NCBI GenBank assembly: GCA_035464095.1
Contig: DATHSO010000198.1
Location: 12,071 to 76,070, forward strand
DNA: 64,000 nt
Source: Candidatus Methylomirabilota bacterium
Lineage (GTDB): Bacteria; Acidobacteriota; Thermoanaerobaculia; Thermoanaerobaculales; Sulfomarinibacteraceae
Reading direction: 5' to 3'
The stretch's first letter is position 1. Every line of letters begins with the position of its first letter. Under the pieces are notes generated by a model, which searched no databases, had not been told where the DNA came from, and saw only the letters and a list, made by a program, of their open reading frames with translations. Shown here one piece after another: positions 10,938 through 60,990 of the stretch. The position numbers and the translations under genes were made by a program.

Positions 10938-11908
10938 GAGCCCACCTCCTCCCCTGACGCCGCCGCCGGGAGGCGCACGACATAGCTGTGGAGGGCGCCC
11001 GCACGGAGGTCGAGCTGCCGGCGCTCCACGACCCGTCCCTCGAGCTCGACCTCGAGCAGCCACCGTCCCGGCAGCAGGCTCCCGAAGGTGGCCTCCGGCG
11101 CCAGCACGGCGTGGCGACGGTCGCCGCCACGCTCGAGCCGCGCCACCACCTTCGGACCGCCGGCTACCCTGTCGAGACGGCAGACGAGCTCGGCGCCCAG
11201 GTCGGGGCGGACCAGCACAGTGCCCTCGCGCGGCAGGTCCCGCAGCTCGCCGCCCTCCGACCTGACGGTCGAGACCTCGGGCACGCGCTCCACGGCGTCC
11301 GCGAAGACCAGGTGTCTCGGGGTGATGGTCCACCAGCCCAGGGTCGGGTCGGTGGGGACCCACCCGGCTCCGGGCAGACGGCACTCGACCCATCGGTGCG
11401 GGATCGCCCGGCGGCCGTCGATGAGCAGACCGCTCACGGTGCGGGCCTCGAAGCCGGCCGCCAGCAGCAGGGCCGCGGTGGCGTTGGCAAGCCCGGAGCA
11501 CCGGCCGCCACGGGCGGCGATCACCGACGCCGCATCCTGGGGCCGCCGGTCGTCGGCGAGCAGGGCGAGGTTGTCCCAGACCCAGGCGAGGACCTCGGTG
11601 GCCGCCTGCCACGCGCTCATCTCCGGCCGCAGGCCCGTGCGCAGGTCGGCCGGCAGCTCGAAGCCCGGGGGCACCGCCGGTGCGCCGGCTCCGACGACAT
11701 CGCCGTACGAGCCCCGGGCGCCGATGGGGGTCATGGACGTCTCCACGTGAACGGTCACGGCGCCGTCCGAACGCTCCCGCACGTCGAGGACGTAGCCGTT
11801 GACGGCGTGGGCCGAGGGCAGCACCGGCCCGCGCACCAGGTAGACCGCCTGGTCGGCGCCGGCGATCGCCGCCGACAGGAGCGCGAGCCCGACCAGCCAG
11901 ATCCTCAC
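10934..11908 (-). CDS. Secreted transglutaminase-like cysteine protease-fold protein
   Basis: The GTG start overlaps the nusB stop (GTGA). It has a signal-peptide-like N-terminus and a Cys-His-Asp arrangement (GGRCSGLANA, HRWVE, PTDPT). Confidence 0.75.
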   Translation of the reverse strand: MRIWLVGLALLSAAIAGADQAVYLVRGPVLPSAHAVNGYVLDVRERSDGAVTVHVETSMTPIGARGSYGDVVGAGAPAVPPGFELPADLRTGLRPEMSAWQAATEVLAWVWDNLALLADDRRPQDAASVIAARGGRCSGLANATAALLLAAGFEARTVSGLLIDGRRAIPHRWVECRLPGAGWVPTDPTLGWWTITPRHLVFADAVERVPEVSTVRSEGGELRDLPREGTVLVRPDLGAELVCRLDRVAGGPKVVARLERGGDRRHAVLAPEATFGSLLPGRWLLEVELEGRVVERRQLDLRAGALHSYVVRLPAAASGEEVGS

Positions 11909-12318
11909 CGGCTCCCCGCCCTCCGCTTGACGAAGCCGTCGAGCACGCCGTTGACGAAGCGACCCGAGTCCTCGGCGCCGTACTTCTTGGCGATCTCGAT
12001 GGCCTCGTCGATGACAACCGCCGGCGGGGTATCGGTCTCGTAGAGAAGCTCGAACATGGCGAGCCGGAGGATGTTGCGGTCGACCGCCGCCAGCCGCTCG
12101 AGACGCCAGTGGGTGGTCTGCCGGGTCAGCTGCTCGTCGAGCTCGTCCAGGTGCTCGAGAGTCCCCCGCAACAGGTGGTCGGCGAAGGCCCGGACACCGT
12201 CTCCGGCTCCGGTCCACTCGTCGAAGTCGGTCTGCATGGTCTCGAGGTCGGCCCTGGTGTGTTCGTGCTGGTACAGCAGCTGGAGGGCGAGCTCGCGGGC
12301 GCGTCGGCGCATCCCCAT
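11905..12318 (-). CDS. nusB: Transcription antitermination factor NusB
   Basis: 137 aa with RELALQLLYQ and LERLAAVDRNILRLAMFELLY motifs. Sits directly downstream of ribH, as in many bacteria. Confidence 0.9.
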   Translation of the reverse strand: MGMRRRARELALQLLYQHEHTRADLETMQTDFDEWTGAGDGVRAFADHLLRGTLEHLDELDEQLTRQTTHWRLERLAAVDRNILRLAMFELLYETDTPPAVVIDEAIEIAKKYGAEDSGRFVNGVLDGFVKRRAGSR

Positions 12319-12330
12319 GGCGCCGCCCCG

Positions 12331-12792
12331 TCAGAGCTCCCGGACGAGGCGCGCCATCTCGACGGCCGCCAATGCGGCCTCCCACCCCTTGTTGCCCATC
12401 TTGGTGCCGGCACGCTCCACCGCCTGCTCGAGGGTGTCGGCGGTGATCACACCGAAGGTCATGGGGACGCCGGTGCTCATGGAGCCCTGGGCGATGCCCT
12501 TGGCCACCTCGGCGGCGATGAGGTCGAAGTGGGCCGTGCCGCCCCGGACCAGGGCGCCGAGGCAGACCACCGCATCGTGGTCGCCCGCGGCGGCCAGCCG
12601 ATGGGCCACGAACGGAATCTCCCAGGCCCCCGGAACGCGGTAGACGGTGATGTCGTCCTCTGCCGCGCCGTGGCGCTGCAGACAGTCGAGGGCCCCCGAC
12701 TCCAGGCGCGAGGTCAGGGCCTCGTTGAAGCGGCTGACGACCAGCGCGAAGCGCAGGCCCTTGGCGTCCAGCTTGCCTTCCTTGACCCGCAT
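12331..12792 (-). CDS. ribH: 6,7-dimethyl-8-ribityllumazine synthase
   Basis: 153 aa with [17 protein letters not shown] and [11 protein letters not shown] motifs. GGAGG ribosome-binding site. Confidence 0.93.
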
Positions 12793-12846
12793 GCGAACCT
12801 CCAGAGAGCCACATTGTAGCCGCTTCGGGCGCGAGTGGCCATGAGA

Positions 12847-12887
12847 GCAATTCGTCGGACGAATTGCGGCGGCGCGTCGGACGCGCC
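12847..12887. repeat. Two adjacent perfect palindromes sharing a CGTCGGACG core
   Basis: GCAATTCGTC-G-GACGAATTGC (12847-12867) and GGCGCGTC-G-GACGCGCC (12871-12887). They lie between the stop of the R2lox-like gene and the ribH start, so they could be a terminator or an operator. Confidence 0.5.
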
Positions 12888-12912
12888 GACCGGCCCGGGC
12901 GGGACGCTGATG

Positions 12913-12976
12913 CGCTCCCGCTCACCCTCCCGCTCCCGACCGGGTTCGGGTCCGGGTTCGGGTCCGGGTCCGACCC
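12913..12976. repeat. Hexanucleotide tandem array (CGCTCC / CGGGTY units)
   Basis: CGCTCC CGCTCA CCCTCC CGCTCC is followed by CGGGTT CGGGTC CGGGTT CGGGTC CGGGTC CGACCC. The array abuts the stop codon at 12977. Confidence 0.7.
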
Positions 12977-13810
12977 TCAGCCGGCCACGGCGCGCTCGAT
13001 GCGCTTGAACCGGCTCTCGAACTGGCTGGTGGCGAAGTCGGTGAACTCGGCGAGCTCGAGGCCGAAGGCCATCTCTTCGTAGGCCTCGAAGATCTCGGAG
13101 ATGACTCCGATGGCCAGGGGCAGGAGCTCGGCCATGCGACCCTGGATGTCGTCCCAGACCGGCTCGCCGTGCTCGCTGACCAGGCGGGTCAGGAGGTGGA
13201 CGCCGTAGGCGATGTGGCGCGACTCGTCGGTCTTGAGCCGGTCGACGACCTCGAGCATGCCGGGCATGATCCCGTTGCGCTCGAGCATCGCGTGGTAGGC
13301 CCGGTACCCGGTCTCGGCCAGCACCCCCTCCACGATCAGGTTGTAGGTCACCGAGGCGCGGGCCTGGGCGGTCGGCGACGGGTCGTGCCGGAGCCGGTCG
13401 AGGGCCCCGGGCAGCTCCTCCTCGAAGAGCCGGCGGTAGCTCGGCGATCGGAAGCGGCCGAGGTCGCCCGGATCGACCACCACCTCCTCGAGGAAGCGGT
13501 GGAAGGCATCCACGTGCTTGGCCTCCTCCCACAGGAACGACGTCAGGTAGATCTCCTCCTCGATCCGGCCTTCGGAGGCGATCACCGAGATCAGGGGCAG
13601 CAGGTCGACGGCCACCGCCTCCTCCCCGCCCACGAAGAGGGACGTCAAGTGGAGCAGGGTCTCGCGCTCCCGGACGGTCAGGGCGAGCCAGTGCTCGCGG
13701 TCGCCCTCCAGGTCGATGTCGGCGGGGTCCCAGACGCCGAGCTTCTTGGCCTTCGCCCACAGCACCATGGGCAGTGCGGATCGATCCAGGGTTCTCGTCA
13801 GAGCCGCCAT
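12977..13810 (-). CDS. R2-like ligand-binding oxidase (ribonucleotide-reductase small-subunit-like di-metal carboxylate protein)
   Basis: Two metal-site motifs (WEEAKH and DESRH) plus additional Glu ligands in a ferritin-like fold of about 277 aa. ATG 13810 follows GAAGGG; the alternative GTG at 13819 is the ORF-track start. Confidence 0.8.
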   Translation of the reverse strand: MAALTRTLDRSALPMVLWAKAKKLGVWDPADIDLEGDREHWLALTVRERETLLHLTSLFVGGEEAVAVDLLPLISVIASEGRIEEEIYLTSFLWEEAKHVDAFHRFLEEVVVDPGDLGRFRSPSYRRLFEEELPGALDRLRHDPSPTAQARASVTYNLIVEGVLAETGYRAYHAMLERNGIMPGMLEVVDRLKTDESRHIAYGVHLLTRLVSEHGEPVWDDIQGRMAELLPLAIGVISEIFEAYEEMAFGLELAEFTDFATSQFESRFKRIERAVAG

Positions 13811-40595: not shown

Positions 40596-40611
40596 TGCAA
40601 CCGTTGTGCCA
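40596..40611 (-). promoter_or_regulatory. Sigma-54 (-24/-12) promoter for dsrT-dsrMKJOP
   Basis: The minus strand reads TGGCACAACGGTTGCA, matching TGGCAC-N5-TTGCA with correct GG/GC spacing. It ends about 29 nt upstream of ATG 40567. Confidence 0.75.
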
Positions 40612-40750
40612 GTGGTCGGGACGCCCCCCCGTTCCGCAAAACACTCATCCTGCGCGACCTGGCCCGCCTCCAGGAGCCTTTCGCGCCCGCGATCCGTCAC
40701 CTGGCGTTTCGGCCACGTAACGAGCCTCCCGGGAACGCGGGCATCCGGAG

Positions 40751-45441: not shown

Positions 45442-45885
45442 TCAGCCCATCTTCGACATGTGGAGCTTGAACTTCTCCAGCTCGCCCAGGATCGTGTCGT
45501 GCTTCTGCTCGTCGCGGAGCAGGTAGTCGAGCAGGATGTTGGCGATGGGATCGGTCGATTCTTCCTTGAGTCGCGTTGCGAGCTCGATGGTCTGCCGCTC
45601 GAGCTCATCGTGGGCCTCGATCTGGCCCCAGACCTCGGCCAGGTCCTCGGGGGAAACCTTGAGCGGGGCCTTGGTCATGCTGTCGATCAGGAACTGCTGC
45701 ACCCGGTGGTGCTGCACCGAGTCGTTGCGGATGATCTCCATGATCTGCCGGATCAGGAGGTTGTCGGTCTTCTCCATGATCTGGGCGGTGGTCTCGATGG
45801 CATCGCGCTCGATGCCCTGCCACTGCCGGAGGACGTCCACCATCTCGGCGATCCGCTCCGGGCCGGTCTTCTTGTCGCGCGCCAT
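45442..45885 (-). CDS. Ferritin-like four-helix-bundle protein of unknown function
   Basis: 147 aa, all-helical. Paired E/H-containing segments (RNDSVQHHRV and RDEQKHDTILGELE). GGAGG ribosome-binding site. Embedded between dsrD and dsrL. Confidence 0.7.
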   Translation of the reverse strand: MARDKKTGPERIAEMVDVLRQWQGIERDAIETTAQIMEKTDNLLIRQIMEIIRNDSVQHHRVQQFLIDSMTKAPLKVSPEDLAEVWGQIEAHDELERQTIELATRLKEESTDPIANILLDYLLRDEQKHDTILGELEKFKLHMSKMG

Positions 45886-47305: not shown

Positions 47306-48514
47306 CTACTCTTCGAAGATCTCGTCGTCGAAGAAGATGTACGGGTTTGTCCGGGGGTGCATGACCATCTCGGGGGCCGGGTCGAGGCCGATCTCCCCGA
47401 GGAAGTTGGACAGGCCGACCCGCTGGATGAACTCGCCCACCCGCTCGCGGTTCTTGCCGTGCTCACCCCACAGGTCCCAGATCGCCTCGGTGAGCTCCTT
47501 GAGATCCTCGTAGTCCGACTCCGGATCCATCTCCAGGAAGGGCACGAAGACCGAGCACAGGAGAGCGCCGCCGATGATCGGCGCCTTGCCGCCGATGAGA
47601 ATGGTGGCCCCGCGCTCCTTGCCGGGCTTGAGGGCCTTGGGCATCAGGTTGATGCAGTGCATGCACTTGACGCAGTTCGCGTCGTCGATGTCGAGGGTCG
47701 AGCCGTCCCACTCGATGCAGCGGGTCGGGCACAGGTCGCAGACCTCGGCCTGGACGTCGACGCCGTTCTTCGAGTACTCGACGACCTTGGCGTTGTCGAC
47801 CTGGATGTCGTCCTTCCAGACGCCGATGACGGAGCAGTCCGAGCGGGCGATGGACGCCACGCAGTCGTTCGGGCAGCCGGAGAACTTGAACTTGTACTTG
47901 TAGGGGAAGAACGGCCGGTGCAGCTCGTCCTGGAAGTTCTGGGTGATGTTGTAGCAGGCGTCCAGGGTGTCGTAGCAGGCCCACTCACAGCGCGCCGGGC
48001 CGACGCAGCAGGACGGCGTGCGCATGTTGGAGCCGGAGCCGCCGAGGTCGAAGCTCGGCATGTCGTCCTTCTCCGAGCTGAGCTCCGCGAAGAGCGGCTC
48101 GAGGGCCTCGGTCTTGCAGCCGAGGAAGACGATGTCGCCGGTGGACCCGTGCATGTTGGTCAGACCCGAGCCGTGCTTCTCCCACACGTCACAGATGTGG
48201 CGCAGCGCCTTCGTGTTGTAGAACCACGCCGACGGCTGGTTGATGCGGCAGGTGTGGAACATCTCGACGTTGGGGAAGTCTTGCGGAAGGTCGCTGTAGC
48301 GGCCGATCACGCCACCGCCGTAGCCCATCACGCCGACGATGCCGCCGTGCTTCCAGTGGCTGATGTGCTCCTCGTAGGAGCGTTCGAGGATGCCGAGCGC
48401 GTCGTTGGACATCGCGTTGTGCCCGGCCTCCTTCTTCATCTCCTTGACGAAGCTCGGCCACGGTCCCTTCTCGAGCTCGTCAAGCAGCGGCGTTTCGTGC
48501 TTCTTCACTGTCAT
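47306..48514 (-). CDS. dsrA: Dissimilatory sulfite reductase alpha subunit
   Basis: 402 aa from ATG 48514 (AAGGAG ribosome-binding site). Motifs: [21 protein letters not shown] and the ferredoxin insert CDLCPTRC / CVKCMHC. Confidence 0.95.
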
Positions 48515-48677: not shown

Positions 48678-48693
48678 TGCAACCCGTGTGCCA
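48678..48693 (-). promoter_or_regulatory. Sigma-54 (-24/-12) promoter for the dsrAB... operon
   Basis: The minus strand reads TGGCACACGGGTTGCA, matching TGGCAC-N5-TTGCA. It lies about 165 nt upstream of the dsrA ATG. Confidence 0.75.
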
Positions 48694-48771: not shown

Positions 48772-48793
48772 CCGTTTCCCGGTCGCGGGTTAC

Positions 48794-50251
48794 CTAATCG
48801 TAACGGGTCGGGAGAGCGGCTCGGCCGCCGTTTCGGGATCCCCCGTCCGGGTGACTGCGACCGTCCTGCTCGGGGACCTCGATTCCGAGGCCCCGGATCT
48901 TGCGGAACAGGGTGCTCGGGTGGATGCCGAGGAGCTCGGCGGCGGCCTTCCGGTTGCCCTCGGTCCGGCGCAGGGCGTTGGCGATGTGGAGCCGCTCCAT
49001 CGCCTGCAGCGTGGTGGGCGCGCCCCCTTCGCGGCGTTCAGCTGCGCTGTCCCGGGTCAGCTCGGGCGGCAGGTGGTTGAGCTCGATGACGCTGCCGCGG
49101 CACAGCACGAAGGCGTGCTCGACGATGTTCTCGAGCTCGCGGGCGTTGCCCGGGTAGTCGTGGTTCATGAGAACCTCGAGGACCTCGTCCGAGACCCCCA
49201 CCACATCCTTCTCCTGCAGCCGGTTGAAGCGCCCGATGAAGTGGTCGATGAGCAATGGGATGTCCTCGCGCCGCTCGCGAAGCGTGGGCAGATCCAGGCG
49301 CATGACGTTGATGCGGTAGAACAGGTCCTCGCGGAAGGTTCCCTCCTTGACCAGCTCCGCCAGGTCGCGGTGGGTGGCGGCGATGACCCGGACATTCGCC
49401 GACACCGGCTCCACCGAGCCGAGCGGCTCGTAGACCTGCTCCTGGAGGACCCGCAGCAGGCGCACCTGCATGGCGGGCGAGATGTCGCCGATCTCGTCGA
49501 GGAGAATCGTGCCGCCCTCGGCGTGCGCGAAGCGCCCCGGACGGTCGTGGCGAGCGTCCGTGTAGGCACCGGCTTTGACGCCGAACAGCTCGGACTCGAG
49601 GAGGGTGTCGGGCATGGCGCCGCAGTTGATGGCCACGAAACGCTTGTCCCGGCGCGGCGAGAGGTTGTGGATGGCCCGCGCGAAGAGCTCCTTGCCGGTG
49701 CCGCTGGCGCCGTGGATGACCACCGTGCTGTCGCTGGCGGCCACCGCCGGCAGGACCCCGAACAGGTCTCGCATGGCCGCGCTGCGGCCGATGATGTCGC
49801 CCAGGGAGTAGCGCGCCTCGAGCGCCTTGCGCAGCTCCTCCACCTGGCTCAGGTCGCGGATGGTCTCCACTCCGCCCACGAGCTGACCGTGTTCGTTGCG
49901 CAGGACGGTGGTCGAGATCCTGATCGGCAGCTTGCGGCCGCGGGCGTCGATGACGAAGGCGGCCCGGTCGACCACCGGTTCGCCGGTCTCCATGGTGTGG
50001 CGGAGCGGGCAGACGCTGTTGCAGATGCTCGCCTGGAACACCTCGCAGCACCGACGCCCGATGGCCTTCTGCCTGGGAATGCCGGTGATCCGTTCGGCGG
50101 CACGGTTGAAGTAGGCGATCCGCCAGTCCCGGTCGACGGTGAACACCCCCTCGGCCACGCTGTCGAGGATGATGCGCCCGATTCCCGGCTCGTTGGCCTG
50201 CAGGGCGAGGCTCCACTGCCCCCGCTCCCGCTTCGGTTCCTGCGATGTCAT
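48794..50251 (-). CDS. PAS-domain sigma-54 enhancer-binding protein (PAS-AAA+-Fis HTH)
   Basis: 485 aa. The PAS domain carries CC-x7-C-x3-C (RRCCEVFQASICNSVCPLRH). AAA+ has GASGTGKE, LLDEIGD and a GAYTDA variant of GAFTGA. The C-terminus reads GNRKAAAELLGIHPSTLFRKIR. Confidence 0.92.
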   Translation of the reverse strand: MTSQEPKRERGQWSLALQANEPGIGRIILDSVAEGVFTVDRDWRIAYFNRAAERITGIPRQKAIGRRCCEVFQASICNSVCPLRHTMETGEPVVDRAAFVIDARGRKLPIRISTTVLRNEHGQLVGGVETIRDLSQVEELRKALEARYSLGDIIGRSAAMRDLFGVLPAVAASDSTVVIHGASGTGKELFARAIHNLSPRRDKRFVAINCGAMPDTLLESELFGVKAGAYTDARHDRPGRFAHAEGGTILLDEIGDISPAMQVRLLRVLQEQVYEPLGSVEPVSANVRVIAATHRDLAELVKEGTFREDLFYRINVMRLDLPTLRERREDIPLLIDHFIGRFNRLQEKDVVGVSDEVLEVLMNHDYPGNARELENIVEHAFVLCRGSVIELNHLPPELTRDSAAERREGGAPTTLQAMERLHIANALRRTEGNRKAAAELLGIHPSTLFRKIRGLGIEVPEQDGRSHPDGGSRNGGRAALPTRYD

Positions 50252-51666
50252 CGCGGCGCTCCCCGAGCTTCGTTGTGCGATACTTGGGCGCGGACACGAC
50301 GATGACGAGGCCCCTCCCCGACCCCCGACCGGAACCGACACCCACCCCCGGCAAGGCTCCCGAAGCCGGGCCGCTGCGCGTGCGGATCCTGAGCGCCCTG
50401 GCCGTGGCCGCTGTCGCCGCCCTCGCGGCGCCACATCTGCCTCCCCTGGGGCTCGGTGCGCTGGTGCTGGCGGCGACGCTCGCCGCGGTCTGGGTCAGCG
50501 CCCCGCCCGGTCGCGACGGCAACGGCCACCACCGGCACGTGCAGGTCCTGCGCGACGAGCTCGACGCCTCGCGCCGGCGCTACCAGCGGCTGTTCTCCTC
50601 GGTGCCCTGCTTCATCTGCGTGCTCGATCGCGACCACAACATCGTCGAGGCCAACGAGCTCTACCGGCGGGAGTTCGGCGTCACCGACCGCTCGCTGTGC
50701 TTCGAGGTCTGCAAGCAGCGCACCTCCAAGTGCCCGAACTGCATCGTCGACGCCACCTTCGCCGACGGCGTCAGCCGGGCCGCCGAGGAGATCCTGGTGG
50801 CGCGCGACGGACGGCGCATCAACGCGGTGGTCCACACCCGTCCCATCAGGGACGAGGGCGGCGAGATCACCGCGGTGATGGAGGTCTTCACCGACGTCAC
50901 CGAGGTCAAGCAGCTGCAACGCCAGCTCGCCCTCACGGGCCGCGCGGTGGCGGGGGCCGCGCACCGCGTCAAGAACATCCTGATGGGGCTCGAGGGTGGC
51001 ATCTTCATCGTCAACGACGGCCTCGAGCGCGACGACCGCGGCACCATCGACGAGGGCTGGGAGATGGTGGAGCGCAACGTCCACCGGATCACCGCCATCG
51101 TCAAGGACCTCTTGTTCACCGCCAAGGAGCGCCGGCCCTCCTTCGAGGACGAGGTCTGCCCCGAGGAGATCGTGCTCGAGGTCCGCAACCTCTATGCCCG
51201 GCGAATGGAGGGCGAGAACATCGAGGTCCTGGCCGAGGTGCCGGCCGAGCTCCACCGCGGCACCTTCGACCCCGACGCGATCCACAACCTGCTCTGCAAC
51301 CTGGTCGGCAACGCCATCGACGCCTGCCGCTTCGACCCCTCGGAGGGCAAGGACGGCCACCGGGTGGTCCTCCGCTGCTGGCAGAACGGCAACGGCGCCA
51401 CCGTCTTCGAGGTCGAGGACAACGGCGAGGGCATCCCCGAGGAGCTGACCCGGAAGGTCTTCCACGAGTTCTTCTCGTCCAAGGGCACCGAGGGCACGGG
51501 CATCGGCCTGCTGGTGGTCCAGAAGGTGGCGGAGGAGCACGGCGGCGCTGTGACCTTCCGCTCGACGCCGGGAGAGGGCACCGTGTTCACGGTCACGATC
51601 CCGGCCCATACGCCGACCGCCAAACCGGCCGATCACGGCGTTGGCAAGCTCGGCGTCCACAACTGA
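50245..51666 (+). CDS. Membrane PAS sensor histidine kinase with Cys-rich PAS domain
   Basis: 473 aa (alternative ATG at 50302). Two TM helices; PAS with C-x3-C-x7-C-x2-C (CFEVCKQRTSKCPNC); H-box AAHRVKNIL; HATPase N and G boxes (GNAIDA, GTGIGL). Confidence 0.9.
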   Translation: MSSRRSPSFVVRYLGADTTMTRPLPDPRPEPTPTPGKAPEAGPLRVRILSALAVAAVAALAAPHLPPLGLGALVLAATLAAVWVSAPPGRDGNGHHRHVQVLRDELDASRRRYQRLFSSVPCFICVLDRDHNIVEANELYRREFGVTDRSLCFEVCKQRTSKCPNCIVDATFADGVSRAAEEILVARDGRRINAVVHTRPIRDEGGEITAVMEVFTDVTEVKQLQRQLALTGRAVAGAAHRVKNILMGLEGGIFIVNDGLERDDRGTIDEGWEMVERNVHRITAIVKDLLFTAKERRPSFEDEVCPEEIVLEVRNLYARRMEGENIEVLAEVPAELHRGTFDPDAIHNLLCNLVGNAIDACRFDPSEGKDGHRVVLRCWQNGNGATVFEVEDNGEGIPEELTRKVFHEFFSSKGTEGTGIGLLVVQKVAEEHGGAVTFRSTPGEGTVFTVTIPAHTPTAKPADHGVGKLGVHN

Positions 51667-51749: not shown

Positions 51750-52127
51750 TCAGGCGGCTCCGATCAGCTCCCGAACCTTGTCCAGGAACGCCCCCCGCTC
51801 GATGGGCTTCTCGACCACCGCCTCGGGCGGCCGCAGCTCACCGAGGTACCCGAAGAAGTCGTCCGACCTCGCGAGCCCCGTGAGCACGATGATCGGGATG
51901 GCCGAGGTCTTGTCCGAGGTCCGCAGACCGCGATACGCCTTGACCCCGGACTTCTTCGGCATCAGCACGTCGAGGGTGATCAGGTCGGGCTTATGGGCCT
52001 CGGCGAGCCACACCCCCTCGTCGCCGTCCGCGGCCGAGTCGGTCTCGTAGCCCGCCTTGCGGAACAGGGCTTCGAGGTACACGCGCATGTCCTTCTCGTC
52101 GTCGATAATGAGGATCTTCTTCGGCAT
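51750..52127 (-). CDS. Stand-alone CheY-like receiver protein
   Basis: 125 aa with ILIIDDE, LDVLMP and ...IVLTG...KP motifs. No output domain. Confidence 0.9.
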   Translation of the reverse strand: MPKKILIIDDEKDMRVYLEALFRKAGYETDSAADGDEGVWLAEAHKPDLITLDVLMPKKSGVKAYRGLRTSDKTSAIPIIVLTGLARSDDFFGYLGELRPPEAVVEKPIERGAFLDKVRELIGAA

Positions 52128-52151: not shown

Positions 52152-52991
52152 CTAATTCTCGTACGGATGAGTGCCGAGGGCGGCCTTGGCCTCCGGAGTG
52201 CCGATGCGGCCGAGCACTTCTCGGATCGGATGGCGCAGGTTCTCGTTGTCGAGGGAACGGACGATGCAGTCCACCAGGTCGGGATCGCGCAGAGCCGCGA
52301 GCTCGTCGCCGGCACATTTGACCAGCTCTGGGTTCTTGCTTCCCAGGGCCGAGCACAGATACTCCACCGCCAGGCCTCCGGTCTCTCCGCCCTTGCGGGC
52401 GATGGTCCCGAGGGCCTTGAGCGCCTTCTCGCTGCGCTTGAAGCGACCGATGGCGCGCACTCCCCGCAGACCGCCACCGTAGGCGTCCACGAAAGCCGCG
52501 ACGGCCTCCTCGCTCTTGCGCTCCGGCTCGGCCTCGGCCTCCTTGGCCGCGTCCTCGAGGAAGGACTCGTCGGCGTAGTACTCCACCGCCATCCGGCGGA
52601 CCGCCGGGTTGTACGCCGGGTCCTCGGCGATGGACTCGATGATGCGCCGATCGGTGATCCGCGAGAAGCACATGCCGATGAGCTCGATGTTCTCCGGGGA
52701 CCTGAGCAGATCCGCCAGCACCCGCTGCGAGAACACCCGCTCCACGGCCACCAGCCGGGCGTCGAGAGACTCCGCCTCCCGCGCCACGCGCTCCAGGTTC
52801 GGGTCGTCGTTGATCTTGAGGACGGCGGTCAATCGAACCCGAGGAGAGTCGTCGGTGCACGCGATCTGCACCAACGTCTCGGGGTCGTCGAGCTTCTCGA
52901 CCGCCGCCATCCGGACCTTGGGGTTGGAGTGCTCGTGGTCCTTCTTCTCGAGGAACCTCTTCGAGCTCTTTCGCTTCTCCATGATGGTCAT
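52152..52991 (-). CDS. HEAT/PBS-lyase-like repeat protein
   Basis: 279 aa with repeated ...NPxVRxxAV.../DPxLV motifs (NPKVRMAAVEKL, SPRVRLTAVLKI, NPAVRRMAVEY). GGAGG ribosome-binding site. Confidence 0.8.
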   Translation of the reverse strand: MTIMEKRKSSKRFLEKKDHEHSNPKVRMAAVEKLDDPETLVQIACTDDSPRVRLTAVLKINDDPNLERVAREAESLDARLVAVERVFSQRVLADLLRSPENIELIGMCFSRITDRRIIESIAEDPAYNPAVRRMAVEYYADESFLEDAAKEAEAEPERKSEEAVAAFVDAYGGGLRGVRAIGRFKRSEKALKALGTIARKGGETGGLAVEYLCSALGSKNPELVKCAGDELAALRDPDLVDCIVRSLDNENLRHPIREVLGRIGTPEAKAALGTHPYEN

Positions 52992-53089: not shown

Positions 53090-53458
53090 TCAGTCACCGG
53101 GTTCTCCCAACGCACGTTCCACCGTCGCCACGAACTCGTCGGGATCGATGGGCTTGTCGAAGACCGCGAACGGTTTGCTGACCGCCAGGTGCCGGCCCGC
53201 GAGACCGCTGACCACGATGACCGGGATCCCCCGCAGGGCATCCTGCTTGAGCAGGCGGCGGTAGAAGTCGGTTCCTGTCTGCTCGGGCATCTGCAGGTCG
53301 AGCACGATGAGGTCGGGCGGCTCCTTTTCGGCCGCGTCGAAGGCCTGGCGGCCGTCTCGTGCGGTCGCCACCCTGTAGCCGTTCTTCTCGAGCACCCTGC
53401 TGAGGAAGGCACGGACATCCGGCTCGTCGTCGACAACCAGGACCAAGTGACTCATCAC
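53090..53458 (-). CDS. Stand-alone CheY-like receiver protein
   Basis: 122 aa with VLVVDDE, LDLQMP and ...VVSG...KP motifs. The start overlaps the stop of the small upstream ORF. Confidence 0.9.
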   Translation of the reverse strand: MMSHLVLVVDDEPDVRAFLSRVLEKNGYRVATARDGRQAFDAAEKEPPDLIVLDLQMPEQTGTDFYRRLLKQDALRGIPVIVVSGLAGRHLAVSKPFAVFDKPIDPDEFVATVERALGEPGD

Positions 53459-60665: not shown

Positions 60666-60990
60666 GGAACGGCTCCCTTCGTTGCCCGCCGCGAGCCCCG
60701 TTGCGGGACGTCGTGCGCTGGCAGCCTTCAGAGCAACGGTCATGCCACGGTCGGCGCGAGCCGCCAGGTTCTTGCTAAGGCGTGTGTTTCATGTATGATA
60801 GGCCGCCGAGGCCGAAGCGGGGGGCGCTCCAGACCACAGCAAAATGCAACTCTAGGCCCGTGCGGGTGCTCGCATTCTGCTATGGTCGATCGACACTCTC
60901 CGGACGAGTGCGTGCACGACTGCGCGGCGAGCGCGACGCTCCGATCGGCGGACGCAGATCGCAGCGGCCTCGAACACGGCGAGAATCGCG

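Follow-up and report, generated by a model that had tools for sequence, protein, structure and literature searches.

A predicted OrpR-family sigma-54 activator of dsr genes and a divergent cysteine-PAS histidine kinase in an acidobacterial lineage

OrpR (DVU2106) of Desulfovibrio vulgaris Hildenborough, the only characterized iron-sulfur (Fe-S) protein among the sigma-54 enhancer-binding proteins (EBPs), carries a PAS domain with a redox-sensitive [4Fe-4S]2+ cluster that was shown spectroscopically (Fievet et al. 2021, PMC8359166). Three of its cysteines (C52, C61, and C65) are invariant, position 54 is acidic (D or E), and OrpR becomes constitutive once the PAS domain is deleted or the three cysteines are mutated (PMC8359166). 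The second relevant system is the PAS-containing histidine kinase NreB: in the S. carnosus protein the motif C-x2-C-x11-C-x2-C holds a [4Fe-4S] cluster, and in the B. licheniformis protein C-x2-C-x11-C holds a [2Fe-2S] cluster, in which an exchangeable sulfur fourth ligand mediates sulfide sensing (PMC13478379, PDB 9WEX). In this work, comparative genomics and structure prediction were applied to two divergent genes at positions 48794-51666 of a 64-kb window of DNA (the whole stretch analyzed, to which all positions refer) from the phylum Acidobacteriota. One gene encodes an EBP (minus strand) and the other a sensor histidine kinase (plus strand), and they are located beside the dsr genes. The acidobacterial lineages carrying this locus are described as respiring flexibly, with oxygen and sulfite/sulfate among their options (PMC8528874). 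The comparisons point to a novel arrangement, an OrpR-family sensor apparently re-targeted to dsr genes and paired with a kinase from a related, uncharacterized class of cysteine-containing PAS (Cys-PAS) domains. To our knowledge, almost nothing has been established about the switching of dsr genes outside Desulfovibrio.

The EBP open reading frame covers positions 48794-50434 on the minus strand; translation probably begins at the ATG at 50251, which yields a protein of 485 aa (48794-50251). Its Pfam content is PAS, Sigma54_activat, AAA_lid_14, and HTH_8, with no Response_reg domain in the Pfam scan, as the initial annotation of the locus had said; the places given there for the EBP, the kinase, both cysteine strings, and the GAYTDA loop were likewise correct. 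The PAS sensor domain (residues 29-139; 49835-50167, minus strand) is matched by PAS_9, PAS_4, and PAS. The AAA+ sigma-54 interaction domain (49295-49795, minus strand; Sigma54_activat, E 3.4e-66) is 50-54% identical to that of ZraR (1ojl) in the fold search, and the DNA-binding domain is of the Fis type (HTH_8, 48893-49006, minus strand; helix-turn-helix, HTH). The AlphaFold2 (AF2) model of the whole protein resembles ZraR, NtrC1, and FleQ in Foldseek, and searches of solved structures with the PAS domain returned generic PAS and LOV matches only. The protein thus shares with OrpR the receiver-less PAS-AAA+-HTH organization of a sigma-54 activator.

The likeness extends to the cysteines. The string RRCCEVFQASICNSVCPLRH holds C68, C69, C77, and C81 in the arrangement CC-x7-C-x3-C, and the motif CCEVFQASICNSVC (50009-50050, minus strand), comprising C68, (C69), E70, C77, and C81, is of the OrpR type, C-x-[DE]-x6-C-x3-C. 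As in OrpR, three PAS cysteines are spaced C-x8-C-x3-C and the residue at +2 from the first of them is acidic; the spacing C68-x-E70-x6-C77-x3-C81 is exactly that of C52, D/E54, C61, and C65. In an alignment of 120 close homologues and the query, C68 and C81 are present in 121 of 121 sequences, C77 in 120, and C69 in 116. Since they are near-invariant in these homologues, the cysteines are not a chance cluster. Among 84 members of the wider family (the window EBP and 83 fetched relatives), the triad is complete in 84/84 and the +2 residue is D or E in 83/84, with N in one, whereas C69 is found in only 49/84 and is otherwise replaced by W, S, R, K, Q, F, or Y. The conserved unit consists of three cysteines and an acidic residue, and C69 is a lineage-specific extra. 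In the AF2 model the triad is spread over the short helix E-alpha and the beginning of helix F-alpha. By alignment, C68 is the counterpart of the photoactive cysteine in LOV domains and would therefore face the cofactor pocket. That the three cysteines converge is argued only from their secondary-structure positions, from the alignment of C68 with the LOV cysteine, and from the model presented in the OrpR paper. Taken with family membership, redox or Fe-S sensing by the EBP PAS domain appears well founded, the predicted cofactor being taken from OrpR. The window EBP differs from OrpR in the additional C69 and the GAYTDA loop.

To define the family, an alignment of the EBP PAS domain was used to scan one genome per species, which returned 80 loci. 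Nine of these are linked to dsr genes in the same arrangement as in the window and come from metagenome-assembled genomes (MAGs) of Thermoanaerobaculia, 'Sulfomarinibacteraceae', and Holophagae; together with the window locus they are referred to below as the ten dsr-linked loci. The other 71 loci, from 71 species of Planctomycetota, Desulfobacterota, Verrucomicrobiota, Bacillota, and further phyla, contain full-length EBP homologues of 53-69% identity (48% at one locus), and neither dsr genes nor a Cys-PAS kinase was found near the homologue in the fetched flanks of any of them. The co-occurrence of this EBP with dsr genes, for which a survey had been proposed, is thus real in 9 of the 80 loci and lacking in the other 71. 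Genes of the Nitro_FeMo-Co (PF02579) and/or DUF5320 families, which we take to be orp-type genes (orange-protein operons), flank the EBP homologue in 52 of the 68 scored non-dsr loci. By contrast with these relatives, the window EBP has no orp-type gene beside it, and its neighbors are dsr genes. In the phylogenetic tree, the dsr-linked EBPs form a single clade (SH-aLRT, Shimodaira-Hasegawa-like approximate likelihood-ratio test, 99) nested among orp-linked EBPs. Motif and orp-linked relatives, rather than a direct alignment with DVU2106, place the window EBP as a predicted OrpR-family sigma-54 activator. As part of the overall explanation that we regard as probable, a regulator of this family would have moved from orp-type operons to the dsr locus in the Thermoanaerobaculia/'Sulfomarinibacteraceae' lineage.

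The same family distribution bears on what the protein senses. Instead of redox state, the Fe-S centers of the EBP and the kinase could detect a sulfur species (sulfide, sulfite, or persulfide) through an open position in their coordination, placing Dsr under control of its substrate or product, as in NreB of B. licheniformis. The location of the genes in the dsr locus is consistent with this idea, as are the presence of only three strictly conserved cysteines in both PAS domains and the precedent of a PAS cluster on three cysteines whose sulfur ligand can be exchanged (PMC13478379). On the other hand, OrpR responds to redox potential (PMC8359166), a specific sequence relation to NreB is absent, and most EBP relatives, including those of Planctomycetota and Verrucomicrobiota, serve orp-type operons with no dsr nearby, so that the ancestral signal is unlikely to have been Dsr chemistry. 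On account of the latter distribution we rank sensing of sulfur species below redox sensing and consider it distinctly unlikely.

The presumed targets of the EBP adjoin its gene. The dsrA gene (47306-48514, minus strand; identified by NIR_SIR Pfam matches, a ribosome-binding site with ATG, and synteny) shares the strand of the EBP gene and begins at 48514, 280 nt beyond the EBP stop codon, in agreement with the adjacency first noted. It opens an operon with the presumed order dsrA, dsrB, dsrD, a gene for a 147-aa protein, dsrL, dsrN, ..., dsrC. Upstream of dsrA lies a sigma-54 promoter, TGGCACACGGGTTGCA (48678-48693, minus strand), which matches the consensus exactly and is retained in all ten dsr-linked loci. 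A second promoter, TGGCACAACGGTTGCA (40596-40611, minus strand), precedes dsrM, dsrK, dsrO, and dsrP, a dsrMK(J)OP-type set headed by an RsbRD_N (dsrT-like) gene; both promoters are kept in relatives. In total, two exact TGGCAC-N5-TTGCA sites occur in the window, against 0.10 expected. Each is accompanied by a candidate upstream activator site. The first, GTTACGATTAGGTAAC (48789-48804, minus strand), is a perfect GTTAC-N6-GTAAC palindrome located 111 nt upstream of the -24 element and overlapping the EBP stop codon; the second, GTTACGTGGCCGAAAC (40706-40721, minus strand), is located 110 nt upstream of the -24 element of the second promoter, and at the related locus L001 the second site has identical spacing. 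The pattern GTTAC-N6-G[TA]AAC occurs at only these two places in 64 kb, where 0.01 would be expected. All dsr-linked loci carry it, as against 1 of the 71 orp-type loci, and in the aligned regions upstream of the dsrA promoter the half-sites of GTTAC-N6-GTAAC are invariant in 10/10 dsr-linked loci.

These conserved promoters and the shared upstream site connect the EBP with dsr regulation, and together they constitute strong comparative evidence that it activates two dsr operons via sigma-54, with DNA binding and transcription as predicted steps. The location of the gene beside sigma-54 targets and the palindrome roughly 100 nt upstream of the promoter are further likenesses to OrpR, and the window EBP has relatives that flank Nitro_FeMo-Co and DUF5320 genes. 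The differences are that its targets would be dsr instead of orp operons, that its site is GTTAC-N6-GTAAC where OrpR's own upstream site is GGGCGYRTTTTGCGCCC (PMC8359166), and that a divergent Cys-PAS kinase accompanies it in a member of the Acidobacteriota. The opposite possibility is that the adjacency to dsr is incidental, with the EBP controlling other genes and its cysteines being merely structural. We find this hardly credible: although the EBP-dsr link is a predicted one, the promoter and the upstream site stand at fixed spacing before two dsr operons and recur in ten loci, the GTTAC-type site is unique to two places in 64 kb, and EBP genes usually adjoin their targets (PMC8359166).

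In the proposed mechanism, the EBP PAS domain would bind a redox-sensitive Fe-S cluster on C68, C77, and C81, with E70 or C69 as the fourth ligand, and the protein would occupy the GTTAC-N6-G[TA]AAC sites that precede the two sigma-54 promoters by about 110 nt. With an intact cluster, at low redox potential, the EBP would open the promoters with ATP and switch on dsrAB-D-L-N-C and dsrT-MKJOP; with an oxidized cluster, the PAS domain would block the AAA+ domain, by analogy with OrpR. An Fe-S sigma-54 activator of this kind beside dsrAB, with a defined site and two promoters, would provide a concrete switch for the choice between oxygen and sulfite. The combination of such an EBP, the GTTAC-N6-GTAAC site, and a sigma-54 promoter could also serve as a signature for predicting dsr regulation in metagenomes, and an OrpR-family sensor in a new regulon would widen the role of a protein type with a single characterized representative.

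The upstream sites differ between the two groups of regulators. In some orp-type loci, TTGCA-N5-TGCAA-like palindromes are found at a similar distance in place of the GTTAC site. Separately, palindromes of the form [AC]TTGCA-N3-TGCAA[TG] were observed 90-110 nt upstream of sigma-54-like promoters beside OrpR-type EBPs of several phyla (L014, L016, L055, and L018); these are possibly the activator sites of the orp-linked regulators. Divergence of the HTH domain was considered as the source of a new DNA specificity and discarded: the recognition region LGIHPSTLFRKIR, in the HTH domain at 48893-49006 (minus strand), is nearly identical in dsr-linked and orp-linked EBPs and does not account for the differing sites.

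Three further observations concern the predicted targets. The 147-aa protein encoded between dsrD and dsrL (45442-45885, minus strand) has no Pfam match, and its gene keeps its place in L001 and L002. In L002, a 'Sulfomarinibacteraceae' MAG locus on a contig shared with L010, a gene for a 550-aa membrane protein (Cons_hypoth698; 11607-13259 of that locus) lies between the sigma-54 promoter and dsrA and would therefore be co-transcribed with dsrAB. A third sigma-54-like site in the window, TGGCATGACCGTTGCT (TGGCAT-N5-TTGCT; 60732-60747, minus strand), is located just before the first gene of a Tmc/Hmc-like operon; it has one mismatch in the core and no GTTAC-N6-GTAAC site nearby, and it was not counted as a member of the regulon.

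The loop of the AAA+ domain that contacts sigma-54 (L1; 49553-49570, minus strand) reads GAYTDA in the window EBP. The initial annotation was right that it departs from GAFTGA, yet only the tyrosine is unusual, for the family norm is GAFTDA and the aspartate is present in 121 of 121 close homologues. At position 230 the same alignment has F in 117 and Y in 3 of 121 sequences, with the threonine invariant, and Y occurs in none of the 83 fetched relatives. The tyrosine codon is covered by contigs of two unrelated studies, with 0 and 2 differences across the stretch, and the variant is therefore not an assembly error. A natural GAYTGA loop occurs in HrpS, an active EBP (PMC3105312). The two proteins thus share a natural Phe-to-Tyr variant in the sigma-54-contacting loop and differ in that HrpS is active only as a hetero-hexamer with HrpR, whereas the tyrosine in the window is a rare allele in a GAFTDA family. 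With the aspartate as the family norm and an active precedent for the tyrosine, the view of GAYTDA as a defect was rejected; as judged from its sequence, the loop has the aromatic residue and the threonine of sigma-54 activators.

The kinase is encoded in an open reading frame at 50245-51666 on the plus strand, and its likely start at 50302 yields a membrane-anchored protein of 454 aa (50302-51666), identical to the database protein called from 50302. Pfam detects PAS and HATPase_c (E 4e-25) domains. Membrane helices are predicted, from AF2 secondary structure and sequence, at residues 23-42 and 48-66 (50368-50499, plus strand); a 5-residue loop links the two, and a periplasmic sensor domain is absent. 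The helices are followed by the PAS domain (50578-50898, plus strand; Pfam), modeled with a predicted local distance difference test (pLDDT) score of 94-97, and by a dimerization and histidine phosphotransfer (DHp) helix at residues 200-243 with the predicted phospho-accepting His221 (AAHRVKNIL; 50962-50964, plus strand), which is invariant in 61 aligned homologues. As a whole, the AF2 model (mean pLDDT 83.6) displays the transmembrane helices, the PAS domain, a long DHp hairpin with H221, and a GHKL domain; the folds closest to it are those of YF1, HK853, and ThkA, with a TM-score of ~0.76 to HK853. By sequence and model, the protein looks like a canonical HK853-like histidine kinase that is predicted to be catalytically competent.

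Its cysteine motif, CFEVCKQRTSKCPNC (50698-50742, plus strand), reads C133-x3-C137-x6-C144-x2-C147, so the spacing reported earlier, C-x3-C-x7-C-x2-C, was off by one. Further PAS cysteines, C103 and C106, are encoded at 50608-50619. In 120 close homologues and the query, C133, C144, and C147 are each present in 121/121 sequences and C137 in 117/121. The description of both PAS domains as four-cysteine domains is therefore correct as a count of the residues present in each, whereas the conserved unit is three cysteines, joined by the acidic residue in the EBP, and C137 is a lineage-specific extra like C69. Conservation in orthologues, a point on which the idea of paired sensors had been made to depend, has thus been confirmed, with triads near-invariant in 120 homologues of each protein. 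The kinase PAS domain is homologous to the OrpR-type PAS: it is 34% identical to the PAS domain of an orp-type EBP over 120 aa, and hhalign aligns it with the OrpR-type PAS profile (probability 93%, E 3e-7) in a register that places C133, E135, C144, and C147 on Cys1, the acid, Cys2, and Cys3. The kinase triad has the corresponding placement in its AF2 model, on the short helix E-alpha and where F-alpha begins. Searches of solved structures gave only generic PAS and LOV matches for this domain.

When the kinase PAS domain was compared with 1.84 billion representative proteins, 21,140 clusters were retrieved at E <= 0.001 and 2,405 at E <= 1e-10; motif details were taken from the best 149 clusters. 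The pattern C-x10-C-x2-C (Cys at 0, +11, and +14) is present in 138 of these 149, with 244 instances, and the +4 position, occupied by C137 in the window, is Y in 153 instances, F in 30, and C in only 22. Of the motif copies in the same 149 clusters, 47% have Cys at -30 (C103 here) and 61% have His at +26 (R159 here). The kinase PAS domain thus belongs, by sequence, to a very large uncharacterized three-cysteine C-x10-C-x2-C class. Literature searches on CX10CX2C-type or Cys-PAS kinases in anaerobes found nothing relevant, and other studies may exist. As a separate observation on the best 149 clusters, these PAS domains form tandem arrays, typically of 2-5 copies, and occur in giant proteins of up to 4,799 aa with up to 27 matching stretches. 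The cofactor of this class, once known, would annotate thousands of sensor proteins of anaerobes.

For the kinase, a metal or Fe-S centre is the most likely content of the PAS domain as predicted from sequence; Fe-S is plausible there by homology only, while for the EBP the original idea of Fe-S or redox sensing is backed by OrpR family membership and spacing. The likeness to NreB proposed at first did not hold up. Both NreB and the window kinase have three or four cysteines in a cytoplasmic PAS domain; those of NreB hold an Fe-S cluster, and those of the kinase are predicted to hold a metal or Fe-S centre. The order of the motif is opposite, C-x2-C-x11-C(-x2-C) in NreB and C-x10-C-x2-C in the window kinase, and NreB is a soluble protein with a HisKA_3-type DHp domain and a DNA-binding partner regulator, NreC, whereas the window kinase is membrane-anchored, has an HK853-like fold, and adjoins single-domain regulators. 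Comparison of the kinase PAS domain with the NreB PAS structure 9WEX gave nothing at E <= 1; the EBP PAS profile matched it with E 0.015, in an alignment confined to the N-terminal 43 residues. NreB-type membership was therefore rejected for both domains, given the different motif order and spacing and a PAS similarity that is generic. The two domains may nevertheless work like NreB by analogy.

Taken together, we consider it probable that an OrpR-family Fe-S EBP switches on the dsr genes and that the Cys-PAS kinase signals to the adjacent response regulators. The computed part of this explanation covers the domain content of both proteins, the identity and conservation of their motifs, the placement in families, the promoters with the upstream site they share, and synteny, from which we infer the identity of the cofactors, the direction of the redox response, DNA binding, and the kinase-to-regulator pairing. 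Several points weigh against it. The cysteine loop of the EBP is modeled with only moderate confidence (pLDDT 64 for residues 71-80). The variable position of the fourth ligand in the kinase class also fits a mononuclear metal or an open-coordination cluster, and CPxC knuckles are typical of zinc sites as well. The sequencing runs containing the stretch are DNA metagenomes only, and promoter use is deduced from the sites themselves. Finally, the pairing of the kinase with response regulators comes from gene neighborhood only.

Some of these points lead to a reading without Fe-S clusters, in which the triads would bind structural or regulatory Zn2+ or act as thiol/disulfide switches, the kinase being driven by quinones as in ArcB or AccS. 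The kinase has two transmembrane helices, a 5-residue loop, and no periplasmic domain, and such a two-helix, minimal-loop topology is ArcB-like. A C-P-x-C knuckle, typical of zinc and rubredoxin sites, stands at the start of the kinase helix 148-155, and the fourth ligand varies across the wider class of kinase PAS domains. ArcB and AccS resemble the window kinase in the two-helix anchor, in the very short loop on the outer side, and in having cysteines that matter for function in a cytoplasmic PAS domain; they differ in being hybrid phosphorelay kinases with disulfide chemistry on dispersed cysteines and without a clustered triad. In particular, the redox cysteines of ArcB do not form such a triad, and the kinase triad is in register with the OrpR-type motif. 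AccS is a quinone-sensing PAS kinase with conserved cysteines (PMC6456745). The motif identical to that of the EBP binds [4Fe-4S] in OrpR, as found by spectroscopy (PMC8359166). On balance, zinc or thiol chemistry is an unlikely basis for the two sensors.

The initial annotation found the cognate regulator of the kinase unclear, and the neighboring genes now supply candidates. RR1, a single-domain response regulator (51750-52127, minus strand; Response_reg), is convergent with the kinase gene at a distance of 83 nt. It is adjoined by a gene for a HEAT-repeat protein (52152-52991, minus strand; HEAT_2) of conserved position, beyond which lies RR2, a second single-domain response regulator (53090-53458, minus strand; Response_reg), which follows the Tmc/Hmc-like redox operon. 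The receiver domains of RR1 and RR2 are intact by Pfam, and in all 9 of the dsr-linked loci whose flanks are long enough, RR1, the HEAT protein, and RR2 accompany the kinase. Distant kinase homologues in the loci L084 and L085 (46-48% identity, 716-734 aa, with three C-x10-C-x2-C PAS copies each) are co-directional and closely spaced with a HEAT gene and a response regulator 51% identical to RR1, the latter directly upstream of the kinase. The HEAT protein of the L085 unit is 36% identical to that of the window, and in both loci a convergent TmcD/C/B/A-like operon ends in an RR2 homologue (55% identical). Because this HEAT-regulator-kinase module recurs, RR1 foremost, and perhaps RR2, is the likely phosphoryl acceptor of the kinase as predicted from gene order. 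As a side observation, the whole module of this metagenomic lineage (L084 787-15772 and L085 1056-15644) also comprises dsrMK-like genes and a tandem pair of Cys-PAS EBPs, of which one has the OrpR motif and the other C-x8-C-x4-C.

It might be argued instead that the kinase acts on the receiver-less EBP by protein contact, as an anti-activator or co-sensor in the manner of NifL and NifA, leaving the response regulators to the Tmc/Hmc-like operon alone. In every dsr-linked locus the EBP and kinase genes are divergent neighbors, and the kinase is found in none of the 71 orp-type loci, so that it would have arrived together with the dsr link; the EBP lacks a receiver, and the entry 9qq6 appears in the EBP fold search. 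NifL-NifA is a known kinase-like/EBP pair (PMC10372690). It likewise combines a PAS-containing kinase-like redox sensor with a receiver-less sigma-54 activator encoded beside it. There the resemblance ends: NifL uses FAD and needs no phosphotransfer, nifL and nifA are co-transcribed, and NifA senses via a GAF domain, whereas in the window both proteins carry a Cys-PAS domain and the kinase looks catalytically competent. With an invariant H-box histidine and full ATP-binding motifs in the kinase, intact receivers in RR1 and RR2, and the co-directional arrangement of kinase, HEAT, and response regulator genes in L084 and L085, a usual sign of cognate pairs, direct control of the EBP by the kinase is very unlikely.

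Under the preferred explanation, the kinase PAS center would be formed by C133, C144, and C147, possibly with C137 or C103 as a fourth ligand, and the kinase would transfer phosphoryl groups foremost to RR1 or to the other adjacent single-domain regulator and not to the EBP. The response regulators would work with the HEAT protein and the neighboring Tmc/Hmc-like complex. A more far-reaching version, which we advance only tentatively, is that two paralogous metal-cluster PAS sensors govern dsr: the OrpR-derived activator would read cytoplasmic redox or sulfur chemistry at an open three-cysteine site, and the membrane kinase would read the Tmc/Hmc and DsrMKJOP electron chain, while the C-x10-C-x2-C class (thousands of clusters, often tandem) would comprise unrecognized Fe-S or metal sensors in anaerobes.

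A last observation concerns the two genes themselves. Their divergent starts (50251 for the EBP and 50302 for the kinase) are about 50 nt apart in the window and about 90-110 nt apart in L001 and L002; at a distance of about 50 nt, the promoters of the EBP and kinase genes must overlap each other or the coding regions.

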